Positions 2,922-13,373 of a stretch of 64,000 bases of DNA are shown here, in pieces. This DNA comes from Betaproteobacteria bacterium. Its GTDB lineage: Bacteria > Pseudomonadota > Gammaproteobacteria > Burkholderiales > SG8-39. The notes under the pieces are model-generated. The model made no database searches and had not been told where the DNA came from. It saw nothing but the letters and a program-made list of their open reading frames with translations. Made by a program: the position numbers and the translations under genes. The first letter of the stretch is position 1; each line of letters opens with the position of its first letter. The stretch lies in NCBI GenBank assembly GCA_947482825.1, contig CANKMT010000005.1, positions 15,250 to 79,249 of the forward strand. Reading direction: 5' to 3'.

Positions 2922-3203
2922 ATGTCCATCTCGATCAAGCTCCCCGAAGACCTCAGAAAGCGCATCGCGCGCGTGGTCGAAGGCACCGACCAGAGCGCGC
3001 ATGCCTTCATGGTGGAGGCGATCCGGCAGGAAACGGAACGCGCCGAGAAGCGCCGCGGGTTTCTTGCCGATGCGTACGCCGCACGCGCGGAGTTCCACCG
3101 CACCGGCATGGGCTATGCGCTGGCGGAAGTAAAAGCGCATTACCGCGCGAAATTGCAAGGCAAGAAGACGCGCAAGCCGAAGTTGCGTTCGTGGCCGAAG
3201 TAA
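2922..3203 (+). CDS. Ribbon-helix-helix (CopG/ParD-like) antitoxin
   Basis: N-terminus MSISIKLPEDLRKRIARVVEGTDQSAHAFMVEAIRQ is a typical RHH. It overlaps the downstream ParE-like ORF by 13 nt. Confidence 0.7.
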   Translation: MSISIKLPEDLRKRIARVVEGTDQSAHAFMVEAIRQETERAEKRRGFLADAYAARAEFHRTGMGYALAEVKAHYRAKLQGKKTRKPKLRSWPK

Positions 3204-3499
3204 TCGTTTCGAAGGGTGCGGACGCAGATCTCGAAAGGCTGGTGATATTCCTGAGCGAGGCGGAGCCTGCCGCGGCGCTGGCGACCTACGACCTTGTGCT
3301 CGGCGCGCTCGAGGTGCTGCAGACGTACCCCACGATCGGCAGGCCCGTAGACGATGTTTTGAGAGAGTTGGTGATCTCACGCGGCCGCACGGGCTATCTG
3401 GCGCTCTACGAGTACGATACGCAAGCTGACCGGGTCGTGGTTCTTGCATTGCGCCACCAGCGCGAGGCAGGCTACCTGGAGCGGGGCGCGCTGGAATGA
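3191..3499 (+). CDS. RelE/ParE-family toxin
   Basis: 102 aa with GTG start. Pattern DLERLVIFL...PTIGRPV...RELVISRGRTGYLALYEY...VVVLALRHQRE is typical of ParE plasmid-stabilisation toxins. Confidence 0.75.
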   Translation: MAEVIVSKGADADLERLVIFLSEAEPAAALATYDLVLGALEVLQTYPTIGRPVDDVLRELVISRGRTGYLALYEYDTQADRVVVLALRHQREAGYLERGALE

Positions 3500-3542
3500 A
3501 GCGGGTTAACATGTCCATATAGATGGCCATCTTGGAGGCAGC

Positions 3543-3779
3543 ATGGAAAGGGATTACCCGATTGGCCGCGCCAAGCAGGGTCTGCCCGCGATCATTCACG
3601 AGGTCGAGCGCACGGGGCGCGCCACAATCACGCGCCGCGGCCGGCCGGTGGCGGTAGTGCTTTCGATTGCCGAATTGGAGCGGATCGAGTCATTCCGGCG
3701 CAAGGCGCTCGAGTGGAGCGCCGCCACCCTCGACACGCGCAAATTCAAGTTCGACCGCGAAGAAGCGAATGCCCGCTGA
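3543..3779 (+). CDS. Phd/YefM-family antitoxin
   Basis: 78 aa. GRAKQGLPAIIHEVERTGRATITRRGRPVAVVLSIAELERIE matches the Phd/YefM N-terminal fold pattern. Confidence 0.75.
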   Translation: MERDYPIGRAKQGLPAIIHEVERTGRATITRRGRPVAVVLSIAELERIESFRRKALEWSAATLDTRKFKFDREEANAR

Positions 3780-4272
3780 CCCGGTCCGCGCCGCGGACAA
3801 GGTCACGGCCAAGGTCGAGCGTATTTTTCTGGACTCGAACGTCCTCCTGTATGCGTTTTCGTCGACCGATCCGCTAAAGCGCGAACGGGCGCGCGCACTG
3901 GCGGATGCTCCCGGCGCTGTGATCAGCACCCAGGTTCTGTCCGAATTCGCCAACGTCGTTCTGCGCAAATTCAGCATGCCGGTCGCCGAAGCGCGTAGGC
4001 GAACGGCCGAATTGGCCGCCCGCTGCGATGTGGTGGTGGTGACTGCGCCGCTCGTGATCGAGGCGTTTCGCATCCGCGAGCGCTTCGGGTTCGGCTTTTT
4101 CGACAGCCAGATCGTGGCCTCCGCGCTGTCCGCAGGCGCGACGACCCTCTACTCAGAAGATCTGCATCACGGTCAATTGATCGAAGGCGCTTTGCGCATC
4201 CTCTCGCCTTTTGCGCCTGCCGCCAGACAGCGCCGCGCGGCCTACAAGGTACGCCGTTCGAAGCGGGCGTAG
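3769..4272 (+). CDS. PIN-domain toxin (VapC-like)
   Basis: The ATG at 3769 overlaps the antitoxin 3' end. IFLDSNVLLYAF (first catalytic Asp), STQVLSEF and FFDSQIVASA are PIN signatures. Confidence 0.8.
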   Translation: MPADPVRAADKVTAKVERIFLDSNVLLYAFSSTDPLKRERARALADAPGAVISTQVLSEFANVVLRKFSMPVAEARRRTAELAARCDVVVVTAPLVIEAFRIRERFGFGFFDSQIVASALSAGATTLYSEDLHHGQLIEGALRILSPFAPAARQRRAAYKVRRSKRA

Positions 4273-4323
4273 GCACGCTTGCGAAAAACGCGTCACGGTC
4301 GCGCCCGGCCCGCCTGGATGCCG

Positions 4324-4352
4324 TTGCCATATTTTGCCAAAGTGCCTAAGAT
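4324..4352 (+). promoter_or_regulatory. Candidate sigma70 promoter TTGCCA-17 nt-TAAGAT for the parDE pair (near-leaderless)
   Basis: TTGCCA at 4324-4329 and TAAGAT at 4347-4352. The ATG is at 4359, only 7 nt after the -10 element. Confidence 0.3.
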
Positions 4353-4358
4353 CGACCC

Positions 4359-4598
4359 ATGAGCACGATGAACATCTCCCTGCCGGATTCGCTCAAGGCC
4401 TTCGTCGATGAACAGGTCACTCAGCGCGGTTATGGCACGAGCAGCGAATACGTGCGCGAACTGATCCGCAAGGATGCCGACCGCCTGCACTTGCGAGGCC
4501 TGCTGCTCGAGGGCGGCGCCTCCGCTCCGGCTGCGCCGGCGGGCGCGGAGTATTTTGCGTCGCTCAAGAAGCGCGCCCGGCGGCACGCGCCAGGTTGA
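4359..4598 (+). CDS. parD: ParD-family (RHH) antitoxin
   Basis: MSTMNISLPDSLKAFVDEQVTQRGYGTSSEYVRELIRKD is the canonical ParD-type N-terminus. Confidence 0.8.
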   Translation: MSTMNISLPDSLKAFVDEQVTQRGYGTSSEYVRELIRKDADRLHLRGLLLEGGASAPAAPAGAEYFASLKKRARRHAPG

Positions 4599-4915
4599 AA
4601 CCAAAGCCGGTCATCCCGCGCGCGTTGGCGAACCGGGATGTAGAGGATGCGATCGATTATTTTCTTGGCGAGAAGGCCCGGTCTGCCGCGCTCGGTTTTG
4701 TCGAAGCGCTCGAAGCGGCCTATGCACACATCGGACACTATCCCGCGGCCGGCTCGCCCCGCTACGCACACGAGCTGGATCTCCCGGAACTTCGCTTCTG
4801 GCCGCTCACGAACTATTCATATCTTGTCTTCTATGTCGAGCGCGGCGACCACATCGACGTCTGGCGCGTGCTCCATGCGCAGCGGAACATTCCGGCCTGG
4901 CTTTCAACGGACTAG
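4595..4915 (+). CDS. parE: ParE-family toxin
   Basis: TTGA start/stop overlap with parD. DVEDAIDYF...YLVFYVERGDHIDVWRVLHAQRN is typical of ParE/RelE. Confidence 0.8.
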   Translation: MKPKPVIPRALANRDVEDAIDYFLGEKARSAALGFVEALEAAYAHIGHYPAAGSPRYAHELDLPELRFWPLTNYSYLVFYVERGDHIDVWRVLHAQRNIPAWLSTD

Positions 4916-5030
4916 AGTGGGACGAATGAATAGGCGCCAAACGGTAACCTCCCGTGCGGTCGAGGTCTTCGGCTAGCGGCTTCACGAACGACCGCTTGTT
5001 CCCGGGCAGGGCGCGATAAAATCGCACGCC

Positions 5031-8000
5031 TTGATTGCCGCGCGCCTCCAGGCGGAGCGCCTCGCCCGCCTACCCAAACCCGAATTCGATCCCGCGCTGC
5101 CGGTCAATGCGCGGCGCGAGGACATCCGCGCCGCCATCGAGGCGCACCAGGTCATCATCGTCTGCGGCGAAACCGGCTCGGGCAAGACCACGCAGCTGCC
5201 GAAGATCCTGCTGGAGATGCAGCGCGGCGTGAAGGGCTGGATCGGCCACACGCAGCCGCGCCGGATCGCTGCACGCTCCGTAGCCGCACGCATCGCTCAG
5301 GAGCTCAAGGCCGAGCTCGGAAACCAGGTCGGCTACAAGGTGCGCTTCAACGACAAGGTCAGACGCGAGTCGTACGTCAAGCTGATGACCGACGGCATCC
5401 TGCTCGCCGAGACACAGGGCGATCCGCTCCTCGAGGCCTACGACACGATCATCATCGACGAGGCGCACGAGAGAAGCCTCAACATCGACTTCCTGCTCGG
5501 CTACCTCAGGCAGGTCCTGCCCAGGCGCCCCGACCTCAAGGTGATCATCACTTCGGCCACCATCGACGCGGAAAAGTTCGCGCGCCATTTTAACGGCGCC
5601 CCTGTCATCGAAGTCTCCGGGCGGCTGTACCCGGTCGAGGTTCGCTACCGGCCGGTGGAGGGCGATGCCGAGGACACCACCCGCGACGAGGAGGAGGCCG
5701 CGCTGGTCGATGCGGTCGAGGAGCTGTGCAACACCGGCCCGGGCGACATCCTGGTGTTCCTGCCCGGAGAGCGCGAGATTCGCACCGCTGCTGACATTCT
5801 CGGCCGCAATCTCAAGGCGGGGAGCCGATCCGCAGCCGAGATCCTGACATTGTTCTCGCGTCTTTCGGCCGCCGAGCAGGACCGCGTGTTCCGCCTGGGC
5901 AGCCAGCGGCGGATCGTGCTGGCGACCAACGTGGCGGAAACCTCGCTCACCGTGCCGGGCATCCGTTACGTCATCGACACCGGCTATGCGCGCGTCAAGC
6001 GCTACAGCTACCGCAACAAGGTCGAGCAGCTGCAGGTCGAGAAGATTTCGCGCGCCTCGGCCGCGCAGCGCGCAGGTCGCTGCGGGCGCGTGTCCGACGG
6101 CATCTGCATCCGGCTCTACGACGAGGACGATTTCAGGAAGCGCCCGGAATTCACCGACCCGGAAGTATTGCGAAGCTCGCTTGCCTCGGTGATCCTGCGT
6201 GCCAAGAGCCTGCACCTTGGCGACCCGTCCGACTTTCCGTTCGTCGATCCGCCTGCGCCGCGCGCGATTGCGGACGGCTATGCGCTGCTGGCCGAACTCG
6301 GTGCAGTCGACGACCAGAACGAACTGACGGGCACCGGCAGGGAGCTTGCGCGGCTGCCGGTCGATCCGCGCATCGCGCGAATGCTCGTGGCCGCCACCGC
6401 CGAGCGCTGCCTCGAGCAGGTGCTCGTGATCGCGGCAGCGCTGTCGGTGGCCGATCCGCGCGAGCGTCCGATGGAAAAGCAGGCCGCCGCCGACCAGGCG
6501 CAGGCGAAGTTCGACGATCCGCGCTCGGATTTTGTTGCCTACCTGAAGCTGTGGCAGTTCTTTGCCGAAGCGCTTGACGAAAAGCTCACGAACCGAAAAC
6601 TGGCCGTGCTTTGCCGCCAGCATTTCCTGTCGATCGCGCGCTTGCGCGAGTGGCGCGAAGTGCACACGCAGTTGCGCGTCGTTGCCGATGATCTTGAATT
6701 CAAGCCTTCGAGCGCCGATCCCGCGAAGCCCGAGGGGTATCGCGCCATCCATCGCGCGCTGCTCACCGGGCTGCTCGGCAACATCGGCATGAAAGCCGAA
6801 GACGATTCGGCCTACACCGGCGCACGAGGGATCAAGTTTTGGCCTCACCCCGGGTCCGGCACCAGGAAGCCCGGAAAATGGATCATGGCCGCCGAGCTGA
6901 CCGAGACCACGCGGCTATTCGCGCGCTGTGTGGCCGCGATCGAGCCGCAGTGGCTGGAGGAACTCGGCGCCCACCTGTTGAAGAAGACGCGCGAGAACCC
7001 GCATTGGGAGAAGTCGCGTGCCCAGGTGGTGGCGGTGGAGCGGGGCGTGCTTTACGGCTTGCCCGTCTACGCGAACCGCCGGGTGCATTACGGCCCTTCG
7101 GACCCGGTGCTCTCGCGCGAGATCTTCATCCGCTCGGGCCTCGTTGAAGGGGAGTTCGAAACGCGCGCGCCGTTCTTCGCGCACAACCAGAAGCTGATCC
7201 ACGAGATCGAGCGGCTGGAGCACAAGTCGCGGCGGCCGGACATCCTGGTGGACGACGCATTGATCTTCGCCTTCTACGAAAGCCGCATCCCGGAGGGCAT
7301 CCACAACGGCGCGGACTTCGAAAAGTGGCGCAAGGAGGCCGAGCGCGAGAATGCAAAGTTGCTGTTCCTCTCGCGCGAGGACCTAATGCGCCATGAGGCG
7401 GCGGGCATCACGACCGGCAACTTTCCGCCGACGCTGAAGCTCGGGGCCAACGAGTTCAGGCTCGAATACCACTTCGAGCCCGGGTCGGCCAGGGACGGCG
7501 TGACGATGGCCGTGCCGGTCGCGTTGCTAAACCAGGTGAGTGCGGCCCGCTGCGACTGGCTGGTGCCCGGCCTGCTGAAGGAAAAGGTGCACACGCTCGC
7601 GAAGTCGATCCCGCAGCGCCTGCGCCACAAGCTCGGGCCGCTGGCCGAGTTTGCCGAAGGCTTCGCGGCAGTCGCAAAGCCTTCGGATGTGCCGCTGGCC
7701 ACCGCGATCGCCCGGCATATCCGCGCCGAGATGAACCTCGATGTGCCGATCGACGCTTTCCGGCCCGACTCGGCGCCGCCGCACCTCTCGATGAACTATC
7801 TTGTCATCGACGAGCACGGCCGCCAGCTCGCCGTCGGCCGCAACCTCGCGGAACTGAAGACCGCGCTGCGCGAGGAGACCGAAGCGGTGCTGCAGGACGA
7901 AGCGCCGATGACCGAAGGTGAAAAATTCACCGGCTGGACCTTCGGCGATCTCGAAGAAATGATGGAACTCGAGCGCGGCGGGCACACGCTGGTGGGCTAC

Positions 8001-8741
8001 CCGGCGCTGGTTGATGCCGGCGACGGCGTCACGCTGCAGGTGGTCGATTCCCCGGAGAACGCGCAAGCGCTGCAGCGCGAGGGCGTGAAGCGGCTCCTGT
8101 CGATTGCTTTCAAGGAGCGTATCCGCGATCTCGAGAAGTCGCTCTCGCGCGATCCGGCACTCGGGCCGCTCAAGGAGGATGTGATTGCAGCGGCACTCGA
8201 CCGCACTTTCCTCGCGGAATCATTGCCGATGACCGCCAAGGATTTCGCCGCCCGGGTGGCTGAGGGCAAGAACCGTTTCAACCTGATCGCGCAGGAGATC
8301 ATGCGCCTCGCCACCGCGATCATCACCGAACAGCGCGAACTGCAGAAGCGGCTCGTGACCGCGGCCAAGGCTTTTCCGGTGGCTGCGGAGGACGTGAAGC
8401 AACAGCTTGCGCGGTTGCTCGCGCCGCACTTCGTCGCGCAAACTCCGTATGAGCGGCTACAGCATTTCCCGCGCTACCTGAAGGCGGTGGGCTTGCGCCT
8501 CGACAAGCTGCGCACCGATCCCTCGCGCGACGCTAGGTTGATGAGCGAATTCGCGCCGCTGCACTCGGCCTGGCAGCGCGAATATGCCGCACGTGCCAAG
8601 CAGGGCACTGTCACCGACGAGATCGGGCAGTTCCGCTGGCTGCTCGAAGAGTTGCGCGTGTCGCTGTTCGCGCAGGAGTTGAGGACGCCGGTGCCGGTTT
8701 CAGTGAAGCGGTTGGTGAAGCTGTGGCAGGGGATTCGATAG
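5031..8741 (+). CDS. hrpA: ATP-dependent RNA helicase HrpA (DEAH box)
   Basis: 1236 aa with GETGSGKTTQLPK (Walker A), DEAHERS, TSATID and the long HA2/OB/C-terminal region. TTG start assumed, since no ATG or GTG lies upstream in frame after the stop at 4974. Confidence 0.95.
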   Translation: MIAARLQAERLARLPKPEFDPALPVNARREDIRAAIEAHQVIIVCGETGSGKTTQLPKILLEMQRGVKGWIGHTQPRRIAARSVAARIAQELKAELGNQVGYKVRFNDKVRRESYVKLMTDGILLAETQGDPLLEAYDTIIIDEAHERSLNIDFLLGYLRQVLPRRPDLKVIITSATIDAEKFARHFNGAPVIEVSGRLYPVEVRYRPVEGDAEDTTRDEEEAALVDAVEELCNTGPGDILVFLPGEREIRTAADILGRNLKAGSRSAAEILTLFSRLSAAEQDRVFRLGSQRRIVLATNVAETSLTVPGIRYVIDTGYARVKRYSYRNKVEQLQVEKISRASAAQRAGRCGRVSDGICIRLYDEDDFRKRPEFTDPEVLRSSLASVILRAKSLHLGDPSDFPFVDPPAPRAIADGYALLAELGAVDDQNELTGTGRELARLPVDPRIARMLVAATAERCLEQVLVIAAALSVADPRERPMEKQAAADQAQAKFDDPRSDFVAYLKLWQFFAEALDEKLTNRKLAVLCRQHFLSIARLREWREVHTQLRVVADDLEFKPSSADPAKPEGYRAIHRALLTGLLGNIGMKAEDDSAYTGARGIKFWPHPGSGTRKPGKWIMAAELTETTRLFARCVAAIEPQWLEELGAHLLKKTRENPHWEKSRAQVVAVERGVLYGLPVYANRRVHYGPSDPVLSREIFIRSGLVEGEFETRAPFFAHNQKLIHEIERLEHKSRRPDILVDDALIFAFYESRIPEGIHNGADFEKWRKEAERENAKLLFLSREDLMRHEAAGITTGNFPPTLKLGANEFRLEYHFEPGSARDGVTMAVPVALLNQVSAARCDWLVPGLLKEKVHTLAKSIPQRLRHKLGPLAEFAEGFAAVAKPSDVPLATAIARHIRAEMNLDVPIDAFRPDSAPPHLSMNYLVIDEHGRQLAVGRNLAELKTALREETEAVLQDEAPMTEGEKFTGWTFGDLEEMMELERGGHTLVGYPALVDAGDGVTLQVVDSPENAQALQREGVKRLLSIAFKERIRDLEKSLSRDPALGPLKEDVIAAALDRTFLAESLPMTAKDFAARVAEGKNRFNLIAQEIMRLATAIITEQRELQKRLVTAAKAFPVAAEDVKQQLARLLAPHFVAQTPYERLQHFPRYLKAVGLRLDKLRTDPSRDARLMSEFAPLHSAWQREYAARAKQGTVTDEIGQFRWLLEELRVSLFAQELRTPVPVSVKRLVKLWQGIR

Positions 8742-8753
8742 AGGGAGGAGAAG

Positions 8754-8996
8754 CTATCCCTTCGCTTTCAACGTCTTTTCGTTCGCCGCAATGAAGGCAC
8801 GGATTTCATCGGACATGTCGAGGAGCTTGAGCCACTGCTCCTTGTACAAGGTGATCGGGAAACGCCCCATGCCGTAGACCGAGAGCCCGCCCTTTTCGCT
8901 GACCTTCATGCTGATTCCCGCGGCAGCGCCTTTCTTAAGCGCGGCGTTTTCTTTGCGCAGTTGCTCGAGTTCGTTCTTCAGGTCATCGTCGGACAT
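8754..8996 (-). CDS. Hypothetical 80-aa protein (acidic coiled-coil N-terminus + KVSEKGGLSVYGMGRFPITLY segment)
   Basis: Compact ORF with AAGGA 7 nt upstream of the ATG, in a lower-GC pocket. No family recognised. Confidence 0.5.
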   Translation of the reverse strand: MSDDDLKNELEQLRKENAALKKGAAAGISMKVSEKGGLSVYGMGRFPITLYKEQWLKLLDMSDEIRAFIAANEKTLKAKG

Positions 8997-9064
8997 GGTC
9001 GATCCTTGCCGGTTGGGGAGAAGGCCTTTCGGCTGAAGAGTCTATCGGGGTAAGCGCTCATCGT

Positions 9065-9397
9065 TCAAGCGGTTTTGGAGAACTTTCTCCACGCTTTCAG
9101 CCAGCGCAATTCGGCCGGCGTCATGCCGTGGAAGTTGACCGACTCGAGCGCCACCCGCGCGGAATTCTTTCCCTCTTTGCAAATCACAACGACCGCCCGC
9201 CCTTGCGCAAGATCGAACCCGGCAAGCGTGACTTGCCGTCCCATCACTTCAACCTGCTTGAAGCGGCCGAACATTTCCTCGATGCAGGTCAGCCAGGCGA
9301 CGACTTGCTCCTCATCGCCCCAGGCGTCCGTGAGGGCCAGTTCAATGCAGGCATCGATTGACCTGCATTCGAGCATTTCATCCAGGAGGCTGTTCAT
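9065..9397 (-). CDS. Hypothetical 110-aa protein
   Basis: ATGA overlap with the upstream 51-codon ORF. Pattern DAWGDEEQ...VEVMGRQVTLAGFDL...VVVICKEGKNSARVALESV...ELRWLKAWRKF recalls a widespread ~100-aa family that some annotations label calcium-binding protein. This is recollection only. Confidence 0.55.
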   Translation of the reverse strand: MNSLLDEMLECRSIDACIELALTDAWGDEEQVVAWLTCIEEMFGRFKQVEVMGRQVTLAGFDLAQGRAVVVICKEGKNSARVALESVNFHGMTPAELRWLKAWRKFSKTA

Positions 9398-9549
9398 TGC
9401 GATCCGCAGTGACCACTTTGAAATGCCCCCTTGACCAAACTCATTTCCGCATAAACCTCAAATCCGTAACGAAATCCATCGGCCCGCCTATCCAAATCCT
9501 TGCGGAGGCCGGTTGCGGCGGATTGATCAGGTAGCCAGACGGTGAGCAT
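9394..9549 (-). CDS. 51-codon ORF translationally coupled on both sides (not in supplied track)
   Basis: MLTVWLPDQSAATGLRKDLDRRADGFRYGFEVYAEMSLVKGAFQSGHCGSQ. Its ATG overlaps the antitoxin stop (TGATG). Its TGA overlaps the next ATG (ATGA). Confidence 0.4.
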   Translation of the reverse strand: MLTVWLPDQSAATGLRKDLDRRADGFRYGFEVYAEMSLVKGAFQSGHCGSQ

Positions 9550-9953
9550 CAAGCAAAGACGCCGTGCTCGATTCGCCCCAGACTATCCACCACGCTTTCC
9601 GCGCCTATATCGGTGTCCAACAGGGATAGCGGGGTAGTGCCGGACAGGGCAGGATTCGGGGACTTCATCCACTTGAGAGCTGTATCGTGATCCTCGAATG
9701 TTTCGATTGCTCTCCAGAGGACACGGGCGAGCCGAACGACCTTGGCCGATTGGTCGCTGTTGAGCGTGCCCTCTTTTCTGCGCCGCGCCAACGTGCGCTC
9801 GGGGATGCCGAGGGCCGCAGCCAGTTCGGATTGCGTAATGCGCATGGCCTTGGCCAGCGAATCCAACGCCGCGGAGGATAGGCCCCGACTGGCGGGCCGC
9901 GAAATCGCGCCTGCTGTACTGATCGCGGCTCTCCTATGGCTGCCATATGGCAT
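9549..9953 (-). CDS. Xre-HTH + DUF2384 antitoxin (ParS/MbcA type)
   Basis: HTH segment ITQSELAAALGIPERTLARRRKEG. C-terminal ALKWMKSPNPALSGTTPLSLLDTDIGAESVVDSLGRIEHGVF is the ParS/MbcA toxin-binding domain pattern. Confidence 0.75.
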   Translation of the reverse strand: MPYGSHRRAAISTAGAISRPASRGLSSAALDSLAKAMRITQSELAAALGIPERTLARRRKEGTLNSDQSAKVVRLARVLWRAIETFEDHDTALKWMKSPNPALSGTTPLSLLDTDIGAESVVDSLGRIEHGVFA

Positions 9954-9990: not shown

Positions 9991-11262
9991 TCACGATGTC
10001 CGGGTTGGGCAATTCCGAATCCCCCCGCAGATCTCCACCGGCGTAAACAACTCCTGCCTGCCCCCCGCCACTCCGCGCAGGTCGAACTCCCCGACGCTGC
10101 GCAGCGGACGTTTCACCAGCTTCGCAAACGGCCGCGACAGGAGCAGCGGCTCGCCGGTCTCCTTGCTGAGCGACTGGATGCGCGCGGTCATGTTCACGGC
10201 CGGCCCGACCACATTGAAGGCCAGGCGCGCAGGCGAGCCCACGTTGGCATGCGTGACCTGGCCAAGGTGCAGTCCGAGGCCGAACTCGATTGTCGGCAGT
10301 CCCGCGTGCTTGCGCCGGTGGTTGACCACTGCGATGGAATTAAAAGCGTCGATGGCCGCGTCGAGCGCCGACTCGCACACTTCGGCTTCCTTGTCCGGCG
10401 ACTTGATCTCGAAAACGATCAGGATCGCGTCGCCGATGAATTGCAGGATTTCGCCGCCGCGCGGCGCCGTGGCGGCCGCGCAGTACTCGAAATAGTCGTT
10501 CATGAGGCGCAGCAGTTCCTGTGTCGGGAGCGATTCGGACAGTTCCGTGAATCCGCGCAGGTCCGAGTACCAGAAGGCCGCTTCGATGCGTTCGCCGTCG
10601 CCGCGCTTGACCTGCCCCTGCAGGATGCGCTCGCCGATGCGCGGGCCGACAAAGGCATCGAGCAGGCCGAGCGTCACGCGGCGCGTGGCAAGGATTTCGA
10701 TTACGGGGGCGACCAGGTTGGCCAGCGCGGAGAACCGGCCGAGGTCCGCGTCGCTGAAGCCAGCGCTCGAGCGCGTGGCCAGCGTGAGGACGTTGGAGAT
10801 GCCCGAGCCGAACACCACCGGAACCGCGAAATAATCGACCATTCCTTCGGCGCGCAGGTCTGCCATGGTCGAGTGGTCTTCCGGGGCGACAGGCACGTCG
10901 AGCCGCTTGCGGAACGAGCGCTTTTCGTCGCGCACGAACTGGTTGGGGCTGCCGATGTAGGAATCGAGGTTCTGCACGCCATGCTCGGCTTTCCACGGTC
11001 GTGCGCCGACGTCGCGGTCCCAGAGAACACTCCACGCAAGCAATTGCGGGTGCAGGGTCGCGATGGACAGCCTGGACAGCCGCACACGGTCGATCCGCGC
11101 GCCGGCAGTGTCGAGCTTGCTCATGAGCGCGTTCATGAGATCGACCGGGTCCTCGAGGCTGCGCCCCTGGGTCAAGAGCCATGCGGCGACCGGCTCGTGC
11201 GACCATCCTTCGCTCGTGCCGAACAGGGATTCGCGCGGATGAAGGACCGGATCGTTGTCCAA
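9991..11262 (-). CDS. Class III adenylate/guanylate cyclase with uncharacterised N-terminal sensor-like domain
   Basis: C-terminal catalytic domain: AAFWYSDLRGFTELSE, GGEILQFIGDAILIVF, GLHLGQVTHANVGSPARLAFNVVGPAVNMTARIQS. Confidence 0.85.
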   Translation of the reverse strand: MDNDPVLHPRESLFGTSEGWSHEPVAAWLLTQGRSLEDPVDLMNALMSKLDTAGARIDRVRLSRLSIATLHPQLLAWSVLWDRDVGARPWKAEHGVQNLDSYIGSPNQFVRDEKRSFRKRLDVPVAPEDHSTMADLRAEGMVDYFAVPVVFGSGISNVLTLATRSSAGFSDADLGRFSALANLVAPVIEILATRRVTLGLLDAFVGPRIGERILQGQVKRGDGERIEAAFWYSDLRGFTELSESLPTQELLRLMNDYFEYCAAATAPRGGEILQFIGDAILIVFEIKSPDKEAEVCESALDAAIDAFNSIAVVNHRRKHAGLPTIEFGLGLHLGQVTHANVGSPARLAFNVVGPAVNMTARIQSLSKETGEPLLLSRPFAKLVKRPLRSVGEFDLRGVAGGRQELFTPVEICGGIRNCPTRTS

Positions 11263-12245: not shown

Positions 12246-13373
12246 ATGGATGCTCAGGCGCGCTACCCGCGATATCTCCTGTCGACGCTCAAGGACGACC
12301 TCTCCCGCAAGATGGTGTTCCTCGGAGGGCCGCGCCAGGTCGGCAAGACGAATCTGGGCAAGGTACTCATTCCCGACCCGGCCGCTTACCTCAACTGGGA
12401 CGTCGCCGCACATCGCGCGGCGATCCTGAAGCATCAGCTGCCGGCAGGCGACGCCTGGTTGTTTGACGAGATTCACAAATATCGTCAGTGGCGCGGCTTC
12501 CTCAAAGGCCTGTTTGACATGCATGGCAACGCAAGGCGGATTCTGGTTACAGGCAGCGCGCGCCTTGATTACTATCGCTACGGTGGCGATTCGCTGCAAG
12601 GGCGCTATCACTATCTGCGCTTGCATCCATTCTCCGTGGCCGAGCTGGGAATCGAGTCGCAGGCCGATCTTGAGCAGCTGCTGCGCCTCGGCGGTTTTCC
12701 GGAACCCTTCTTCTCAGGTTCGGAGCGGCAGGCTCGTCGCTGGGCGCGCGATTACCGTGACCGGCTGATGCGCGAGGAAGTCGCCAGCCTGGAGCGAATC
12801 GACGACCTGGGGCAACTCGAATTGCTGGTGATGCGTTTGCCGGGACTGGTCGGCAGCCCGCTTTCGATCAATGGCCTGCGTGAGGATTTATCGCTGTCGC
12901 ATCGCACGGTCAGCAGTTGGATCGACGTGCTCGAGCGTCTCTACGCGATCTACCGGATTGCGCCATTCGGTGCGCCGCGCATTCGTGCCGTGAGAAAGGC
13001 GCAGAAACACTATCACTTCGATTGGTCGGTAGTCGAAGAGGAAGGTGCGCGATTCGAGAATCTCGTGGCCAGCCATTTGCTCAAGTGGGTGCACTGGCAA
13101 AATGACGTTGAAGGGCGCGACGCCGAGTTGCGCTACTTCCGGGACACCGATGGGCGCGAAGTGGATTTCGTGGTGATGCTGGGGCGCCAGCCCGTGAGTT
13201 TTATCGAGTGCAAGATGAGCGATGGGCCGCTGGGCACCGGCATGCGCTATCTGAAGCAGCGTTTTCCGCAAGTCGATGCCTGGCAGGTAGCCGCGCGGAC
13301 CACGCGCGATTACGTTACGCGCGAAGGCGTGCGTGTCGCGCCGGTTCTGCGATTGCTCGAAGCGTTGAAATAG
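12246..13373 (+). CDS. AAA-family ATPase with DUF4143-type C-terminal domain
   Basis: Walker A in FLGGPRQVGKTNL; Walker B-like WLFDEIH. C-terminal EVDFVV...FIECK has the restriction-endonuclease-like pattern typical of this family. Confidence 0.8.
   Translation: MDAQARYPRYLLSTLKDDLSRKMVFLGGPRQVGKTNLGKVLIPDPAAYLNWDVAAHRAAILKHQLPAGDAWLFDEIHKYRQWRGFLKGLFDMHGNARRILVTGSARLDYYRYGGDSLQGRYHYLRLHPFSVAELGIESQADLEQLLRLGGFPEPFFSGSERQARRWARDYRDRLMREEVASLERIDDLGQLELLVMRLPGLVGSPLSINGLREDLSLSHRTVSSWIDVLERLYAIYRIAPFGAPRIRAVRKAQKHYHFDWSVVEEEGARFENLVASHLLKWVHWQNDVEGRDAELRYFRDTDGREVDFVVMLGRQPVSFIECKMSDGPLGTGMRYLKQRFPQVDAWQVAARTTRDYVTREGVRVAPVLRLLEALK

Follow-up and report, generated by a model that had tools for sequence, protein, structure and literature searches.

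Probable remains of a decayed RES-Xre toxin-antitoxin module beside two unrelated accessory genes in a Burkholderiales contig

Gene content of the locus

We analysed a 64-kb stretch of a Betaproteobacteria bacterium genome (contig CANKMT010000005.1, positions 15,250 to 79,249 of the forward strand), referred to here as the window, and in particular four open reading frames (ORFs) that lie on its minus strand between an hrpA helicase gene and a cyclase gene. The contig derives from a metagenome (ENA ERZ27280196 k141_44618, 86 kb) and a Burkholderiales-like organism. The first ORF encodes a 134-amino-acid (aa) protein related to the Xre antitoxins of RES-Xre toxin-antitoxin systems, and it is followed by a 51-codon ORF, by a gene for a 110-aa protein, and by a gene for an 80-aa protein. 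A first-pass annotation of the sequence had described these ORFs as a lower-GC pocket with two tight start/stop overlaps, and this description was confirmed. The coordinates hold (Table 1), the GC content is 0.56-0.60 in the pocket versus 0.63-0.69 in the flanks, and the flanking cyclase belongs to PF00211. The antitoxin ORF overlaps the 51-codon ORF at TGATG (9551-9547), the 51-codon ORF overlaps the 110-aa gene at ATGA (9397-9394), and a 68-nucleotide (nt) spacer separates the 110-aa gene from the 80-aa gene, with an AAGGA ribosome-binding site (RBS) 7 nt 5' of the 80-aa ATG. Promoter and terminator scans of the region found no consensus sites. The sequence was compared with a set of related loci and contigs, which are designated by L numbers. 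From these comparisons we conclude that the locus is very probably a pseudogenised type II RES-Xre toxin-antitoxin module that stands beside two unrelated accessory genes.

Table 1. Coordinates of features in the window and of related IS66 elements in comparison loci
Feature	Position	Strand	Remark
Xre/ParS/MbcA-type antitoxin ORF, 134 aa	9549..9953	-	Damaged copy of a 151-aa antitoxin
Native antitoxin RBS (AGGAG, 9935-9931) and mutated start (9923-9921, ATG->ATC)	9921..9935	-	
Junction of 27-codon in-frame antitoxin deletion	9888..9893	-	From protein alignment; deletion common to L025
First five RES toxin codons (ATG CTC ACC GTC TGG = MLTVW)	9535..9549	-	Overlaps antitoxin stop (TGATG)
RES toxin 3' relic, codons ~122-153 and TGA at 9443-9441	9441..9534	-	Frame differs from that of the ATG
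51-codon ORF (counted from ATG), a fortuitous open frame	9394..9549	-	Spans relic and 43-nt spacer
110-aa CcbP-like gene	9065..9397	-	Conserved; unrelated to the toxin-antitoxin module
80-aa gene	8754..8996	-	Own AAGGA RBS; widespread conserved family
HrpA-type helicase gene (hrpA)	5031-8741	+	Flank
PF00211 cyclase gene	9991-11262	-	Flank
IS66 elements, ~2.9-3.3 kb	L005:1209-4378, L018:1212-4378, L020:1205-4377, L010:535-3686, L012:469-3413, L006:414-3669		110-aa gene as fourth ORF

A damaged antitoxin gene

The product of the 134-aa ORF matched PF20432 (E = 5.8e-16) and PF09722 (E = 1.5e-16), in agreement with the Xre helix-turn-helix (HTH) and DUF2384 pattern that had been read from its sequence. 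It also matched the NCBIfam model NF049845, "type II RES/Xre antitoxin", with 131.6 bits (cutoff of 90) and TIGR02293 with 112.8 bits, and the protein is clearly predicted to be an antitoxin of the Xre/MbcA/ParS type. The closest intact homologues share 82-85% aa identity with it across the common core, and among the 120 closest, 88 have a length of 151 aa. Alignment with these 151-aa homologues showed that the antitoxins of both the window and the sister contig L025 lack canonical residues ~13-39 (LSIEALLGGRKVLQVKQRTALDWVLVIR). The missing segment is strongly conserved in the homologues and takes in the beginning of the HTH profile (PF20432 begins at residue 33 of the intact antitoxin in L027). 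At the DNA level, homology of the antitoxin gene to the intact modules of L027 and L028 begins at window position 9889 (blastn).

The start of the gene is also altered in the window. In L025, the native ATG is kept behind AGGAG, and the product begins with MSTADAISRPA, like the intact homologues (MSTAS.IS.PA). In the window this codon is ATC, and the frame can be read only from an ATG farther upstream, at 9953, that lacks a Shine-Dalgarno sequence; the resulting N terminus is non-native. Within the remaining protein, 62 columns have a conservation of at least 95%, and the window carries 3 changes at these columns; the mean across 119 homologues is 0.85 ± 0.91.

A RES toxin relic downstream of the antitoxin

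No intact PF08808 RES toxin gene adjoins the antitoxin gene at the locus, and no other RES gene was found across the 64-kb window. Wherever the context of intact antitoxin copies could be retrieved, a PF08808 RES toxin gene follows with the usual overlap. The L027 toxin is 153 aa long and starts with MLTVWRLLTARF, and the toxins of both L027 and L028 begin with MLTVWRLL. The MLTVW codons of the 51-codon ORF and the sequence of its junction are identical to these toxin starts; the TGATG junction of the window is the same as that of the intact L027 module, with the same overlapping, antitoxin-first order. Directly after these codons, a shifted frame of the window reads SGYLINPPQPASARIWIGGPMDFVTDLRFMRK followed by a stop codon, and the L027 RES toxin ends with TNYLLNPLHPSFARIEIGKPEEFVTDLQLRRK and a stop codon. 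The Smith-Waterman score of this stretch against the L027 RES toxin was 90, versus 21.9 ± 3.9 for shuffled sequences (0/2000 reached the observed score; z of ~17.6), and tblastn matched it to RES with an E value of 2e-7. On these matches, the sequence at 9549-9441 is unmistakably the remnant of a RES gene. Thus, the earlier statement that no RES-like ORF exists in any frame is correct for a complete ORF but missed this relic.

The extent of the loss could be read from the same comparisons. When the window was compared by blastn with the intact modules in L027 and L028, homology extended from 9889 to 9534 and no further. Measured from its ATG (9549) through the stop of the relic (9441), the toxin remnant has 109 nt, versus 462 nt in the L027 gene, so that ~353 nt are missing, and because 353 is not a multiple of three, the frame of the relic is changed. 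What remains of the toxin is codons 1-5 and ~122-153, in two different frames, and toxin codons ~6-121 are gone. The positions in MbcT that are equivalent to the RES Arg, Glu, and Ser have been reported (PMC6436930). By inspection of the L027 toxin, and not by alignment to MbcT, the catalytic residues R28 (in GGRWN), E49, and S115 (in VPS) would all fall within the missing 353 nt. As its frame differs from that of the ATG, the relic is not translatable as a RES protein, and toxin activity is predicted to be absent.

The 51-codon ORF had no family match in Pfam, NCBIfam, PADLOC, or PHROGs beyond chance level, and on the comparisons with intact toxin genes it is a chance open frame over the relic and a 43-nt spacer and not a gene. 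We also considered that the 51- and 110-codon ORFs together (161 codons, approximately the size of the toxin) might represent a frameshifted full-length RES gene. This candidate was rejected, as the 110-aa protein belongs to a conserved family of its own and has no similarity to RES; only 9549-9441 derives from the RES gene.

Comparison with related contigs

The sister contig L025 is 97% identical to the window at the nt level and has the same cyclase-Xre-110-80-hrpA order. Across the 51-codon stretch, the two differ by 9.1% substitutions and a 1-nt indel, versus 2.4% in the 110-aa gene. The indel joins the old toxin ATG in frame to the 110-aa gene in L025, which generates a 161-aa ORF, while the relic frame of L025 carries an additional in-frame TAG and the ATGA overlap is not present. 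These differences, found between two such similar contigs, show that the 51-codon ORF is not conserved as a coding sequence. They also change the meaning of the double overlap, which the first-pass annotation had wrongly taken as a sign that the small ORFs are expressed together with the antitoxin. The TGATG is inherited from the old antitoxin/toxin junction and the ATGA, missing in L025, is accidental, so that the overlaps do not represent an evolved coupling device.

The contig L028 (JANNNR010000116) carries an intact 151-aa antitoxin gene and the 5' part of the toxin gene, and its neighbourhood has EI24 and molybdopterin-enzyme genes in common with that of the window. Past residue 42, its RES frame (L028:3456-3629) no longer follows the family consensus; the contig ends soon afterwards, and the departure may be an assembly-end artefact or an independent frameshift that inactivates the toxin. 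In the more distant locus L037 (~80% nt identity), the 110-aa/80-aa/hrpA arrangement is preceded by a different, non-Xre sequence, and L037 and the window become homologous precisely at the start codon of the 110-aa gene. As L037 has no Xre gene, the adjacency of the antitoxin to the 110-aa gene is confined to the immediate lineage of the window.

Fold and family of the 110-aa protein

The 110-aa protein has 173 close homologues with 55-85% identity, nearly all of them ~110 aa long and from Burkholderiales-type metagenomes, and four cysteines and several tryptophans are invariant in the family. To judge from its dN/dS of 0.17, the gene is a real one under purifying selection. Searches of Pfam (E <= 1), NCBIfam, PADLOC, and PHROGs gave nothing beyond chance level, and a sequence-profile search of the PDB with the protein found nothing.

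An AlphaFold2 (AF2) model of the protein had a predicted local distance difference test (pLDDT) score of 93.4. The top PDB matches of this model in Foldseek were two structures of Anabaena CcbP, 3urg and 2p0p, and these were the sole full-length structural matches. The template modelling (TM) scores were 0.61/0.55 for 3urg, with a root mean square deviation of 2.7 over 100 columns, and 0.65/0.58 for 2p0p, with E values of only 9e-3 to 2.5e-2. The model places the protein in the CcbP fold; a fold search of BFVD was uninformative. A profile of the 110-aa family retrieved 320 cluster representatives. When 10 distant relatives were scored against PF11535 (Calci_bind_CcbP; gathering score of 21.5 bits), six reached 28.0-34.4 bits and two others had 21.4 and 19.2 bits. 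The fold match and the PF11535 scores of the relatives together indicate that the 110-aa protein is a divergent member of the CcbP superfamily.

CcbP buffers Ca2+ through acidic surface residues in the setting of cyanobacterial heterocyst regulation (PMC7065334). The AF2 model superposes on the Anabaena protein, and the family profile reaches PF11535 members; however, the 110-aa protein differs from CcbP in having no PF11535 match of its own and in its four invariant cysteines. Its N-terminal half is acidic, as read from the sequence, but the whole protein is only mildly so. The setting is different as well, since the 110-aa gene occurs in Burkholderiales, either as cargo of IS66 elements or as a solo gene.

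Multidomain relatives were also retrieved (the set that includes P0470, P0493, P0441, and P0501), in which the CcbP-like domain is usually C-terminal and is combined with a SWIM zinc finger, DUF6933, or the cyanobacterial FRP. In one relative, a response-regulator receiver precedes the profile-matched region on its N-terminal side; that protein itself has no PF11535 match. These architectures suggest that the CcbP-like domain may be used for ligand or partner binding in general and not as a dedicated calcium buffer.

Neighbourhoods of the 110-aa gene and association with IS66

We surveyed the neighbourhoods of 110-aa homologues at 21 loci outside the lineage of the window, 20 of them from a genome scan. 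Neighbour genes were taken from a call filtered on GC content at third codon positions, as unfiltered clustering of all ORFs was swamped by spurious high-GC ORFs. At the 20 scanned loci, tblastn found no relatives of the antitoxin, the RES toxin, the 51-codon ORF, or the 80-aa protein near the 110-aa homologue. Additionally, PF09722, PF20432, and PF08808 were absent from the 93 called neighbours and from 138 ORFs of 95-260 aa within ±1.6 kb. The co-occurrence of this family with DUF2384 genes that a recruited antitoxin would lead one to expect was thus not seen, with DUF2384 or RES neighbours at 0/21 loci.

A different association was found. At 9 of the 20 loci, the 110-aa homologue adjoins IS66 insertion sequence (IS) transposase genes. 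In seven of the loci it is carried as cargo, with tnpC on one side and the right inverted repeat on the other (six loci have both repeats, and in L011 the right one alone was found), with the cargo gene located ~300 nt 3' of tnpA-tnpB-tnpC (PF05717, PF03050, and related families). The terminal repeats of these elements begin with GTAAGCGTCCGG (GTAAGCG ends), and perfect 8-bp target duplications were identified for L005 (CTTGATCC), L018 (CGTGGATC), and L020 (GAACACAC). The loci L005, L006, L010, L012, L018, and L020 therefore fit the organization of the IS66 family, with its tnpA-tnpB-tnpC genes, GTAAGCG repeats, and 8-bp duplications, whereas the copy in the window has neither a transposase gene nor a convincing repeat. 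In L015, the 110-aa gene has the opposite orientation to the transposase genes, yet it lies between GTAAGCG ends.

No IS66 transposase homology was detected in the window. The 7-nt motif CGCTTAC is found 9 nt after the stop of the window 110-aa gene; it is not kept in L025 or L037, and the remainder of the repeat is missing. The possibility that the window gene marks the truncated right end of an IS66 element was rejected, as real elements place the motif ~45-50 nt after the stop and the CGCTTAC of the window is attributable to chance. The DNA similarity of the window gene to the IS-borne copies begins exactly at the ATG. On its surroundings, the window copy is a solo copy of the gene.

In the literature we found no description of a CcbP-like cargo gene of IS66, although coverage was incomplete and this is no proof of novelty. 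The 110-aa protein might be an unrecognised accessory ("fourth") gene product of a Burkholderiales IS66 subgroup that modulates transposition or benefits the host, and copies of the gene might have been stranded or domesticated more than once as solo genes, the window copy among them. We regard this proposal as doubtful, and its possible extension, in which the damaged Xre antitoxin would persist as a regulator and drive the 110-aa and 80-aa genes by read-through, as weaker still.

Two other contexts of the 110-aa gene were observed. In L014:1223-4101, L023:4001-6803, and L024:4001-6624, an ~830-850-aa protein is encoded convergently with the 110-aa homologue and abuts it. This neighbour contains the AEP primase domain of TOTE conflict systems (PF22548) and helicase domains, and it represents a second recurrent context of mobile or defence type. 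In L008, a partial second copy of the gene (4809-5000; residues 46-110, 46% identity) lies 1.1 kb 3' of the full copy and adjoins a DUF4160-like small ORF and a transposase-like 478-aa ORF.

The 80-aa gene

The 80-aa protein has at least 8000 homologues, counted as database clusters, and the top 120 are 86-100% identical to it. No match beyond chance level was found in Pfam, NCBIfam, PADLOC, or PHROGs. The AF2 model, with a moderate pLDDT of 73, shows a helix at the N terminus and then a small beta unit, and a PDB fold search with this model gave no significant match. Thus, of the three small products subjected to profile and structure searches, the 110-aa protein was found to be CcbP-like, the 51-codon ORF gave no profile match, and the 80-aa protein gave neither a profile nor a fold match.

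The contexts of the 80-aa gene vary (L029-L036) and include a position upstream of queA-tgt-yajC-secDF. In one lineage, the gene has an IS200-like Y1 transposase fragment on one side and queA-tgt-yajC-secDF on the other. The 110-aa/80-aa pair recurs in the wider lineage of the window (L025 and L037), but we rejected the idea that the 80-aa gene is tied to hrpA as a constant neighbour or to the 110-aa gene as a partner, as its contexts differ and no 80-aa relative was found near the 110-aa gene at the 20 scanned loci. With a dN/dS of 0.28, the gene is under purifying selection, and no link to the toxin-antitoxin relic was seen.

Surroundings of the pocket

Beyond hrpA, at window positions 3190-4915 on the minus strand (coordinates converted from the L001 gene calls), there are three more type II toxin-antitoxin modules. 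Two of them pair a ParE toxin with a partner protein, which in the first has 76 aa, and the third pairs PIN with Phd/YefM. Toxin-antitoxin loci are therefore found on both sides of hrpA, and the pocket is a variable, lower-GC region within a genome rich in such modules. A further variable spot of the neighbourhood is an AAA_14/DUF4143 ATPase gene at window positions 12246-13373 (plus strand), between an EI24-family gene and a molybdopterin oxidoreductase gene, which is missing from the matching position in L028.

Decay of the module and alternative explanations

The course of events that we propose for the locus is as follows. The ancestor would have been a 151-aa Xre/DUF2384 antitoxin gene overlapping, at TGATG, an ~153-aa gene for an NAD+-targeting RES toxin. 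An out-of-frame deletion of ~353 nt removed toxin codons ~6-121, including those for the catalytic Arg, Glu, and Ser, and left the first 5 toxin codons joined to the frameshifted last 32. The antitoxin would then have drifted, because there was no longer a toxin to neutralise; it has an in-frame deletion of 27 N-terminal codons and, in the window, has lost the native start as well. The 51-codon ORF starts at the former toxin ATG, crosses the relic, and closes at a stop codon whose overlap with the next ATG is due to chance. The 110-aa and 80-aa genes are separate units under purifying selection that became linked to hrpA before the antitoxin was present or independently of it, and their products are predicted to be neither toxins nor partners of the antitoxin. 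Under this scenario, toxin-antitoxin activity would have been lost at the locus, and any residual role of the antitoxin would be at most regulatory. The first-pass annotation had offered, as one of two readings, that the toxin was replaced and the antitoxin orphaned. An orphan with a lost toxin is what we find; however, the toxin was destroyed in place by an internal deletion, and the antitoxin is degraded too.

The comparison with characterised RES-Xre systems (MbcTA of Mycobacterium tuberculosis, ParST, and RES-Xre of Pseudomonas putida; PMC6436930) is in line with this scenario. The window antitoxin shares with them the Xre-like HTH and the C-terminal toxin-binding domain, the antitoxin gene comes first with overlapping start and stop codons, and its close homologues are paired with PF08808 toxins. 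The window differs in that the toxin is a relic of 5 plus 32 codons without the R-E-S residues and the antitoxin lacks 27 N-terminal codons as well as the native start codon, and the module is predicted to be no longer able to act as a toxin-antitoxin pair.

Several observations weigh against decay of the module. The ancestral toxin is reconstructed from relatives and was not seen intact in the exact lineage of the window. The antitoxin ORF remains uninterrupted in the window and in L025, its two Pfam domains still score well (E of ~1e-16), and its conserved core contains only 3 unusual substitutions. As the open ORF, the scoring domains, and the few core changes can be accommodated if the loss is recent, we favour a recent event. 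The dN/dS of the antitoxin between the window and L025 was 0.79-0.92, whereas the 110-aa and 80-aa genes had values of 0.17 and 0.28, but the antitoxin value is derived from 5 synonymous and 11-13 non-synonymous changes, and with such low counts the dN/dS values are individually non-significant and only suggestive. Finally, a residual function of the antitoxin is possible, either in DNA binding or in neutralising a RES toxin encoded elsewhere, and as no promoter or terminator consensus was found in the region, transcripts that start at the antitoxin promoter may also extend into the 110-aa and 80-aa genes.

The same features could be explained if the antitoxin were a retained, functional orphan that acts as a regulator, possibly of the 110-aa and 80-aa genes, or as an "anti-addiction" factor against RES toxins of mobile elements. 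Besides the open ORF and the small number of changes at highly conserved columns, such a role would be compatible with the in-frame nature of the 27-codon deletion, with the intact C-terminal toxin-binding domain and largely intact HTH, and with the co-orientation of the four ORFs and the absence of terminator motifs from the scanned region. However, we consider a retained function quite unlikely. The dN/dS of the antitoxin is high, the native ATG is gone in the window and its replacement has no Shine-Dalgarno sequence, and the deletion removed a strongly conserved N-terminal segment that includes the start of the HTH. Moreover, L037 has the 110-aa/80-aa pair without Xre, and the 64-kb window offers no other RES gene.

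The other first-pass reading, that a DUF2384 antitoxin was recruited to new effectors and that the 51-, 110-, and/or 80-aa products form a novel coupled toxin or complex, is scarcely credible and is refuted by computational checks that the annotation had itself named: it could draw on the tight overlaps in the window, on the lack of a family assignment for the 110-aa and 80-aa products, and on the occurrence of the 110-aa gene on mobile elements, but the 51-codon ORF is a frameshifted toxin relic with an altered, unconserved frame in L025, 110-aa homologues never adjoin DUF2384 or RES genes at the 21 loci and are found without Xre in L037, the predicted CcbP-like fold is unlike that of any known toxin, the 80-aa protein is highly conserved, widespread, and present in housekeeping contexts, and constraint is seen in the 110-aa and 80-aa genes but decay in the antitoxin.

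Decay of a RES-Xre module thus remains the explanation that we prefer, and it carries a caution for annotation, as what appeared to be a toxinless antitoxin coupled to small ORFs would be a toxin-antitoxin module in mid-decay. Toxin relics of this kind yield spurious "translationally coupled" small ORFs, which could contaminate catalogues of small proteins. The sole forward lead from the locus is a mildly new by-product, namely the family of CcbP-like genes that travels as IS66 cargo. Overall, the locus would represent a clean, datable case of the death of a chromosomal RES-Xre module, in which the toxin was lost first through a large frameshifting deletion and the antitoxin drifted afterwards.

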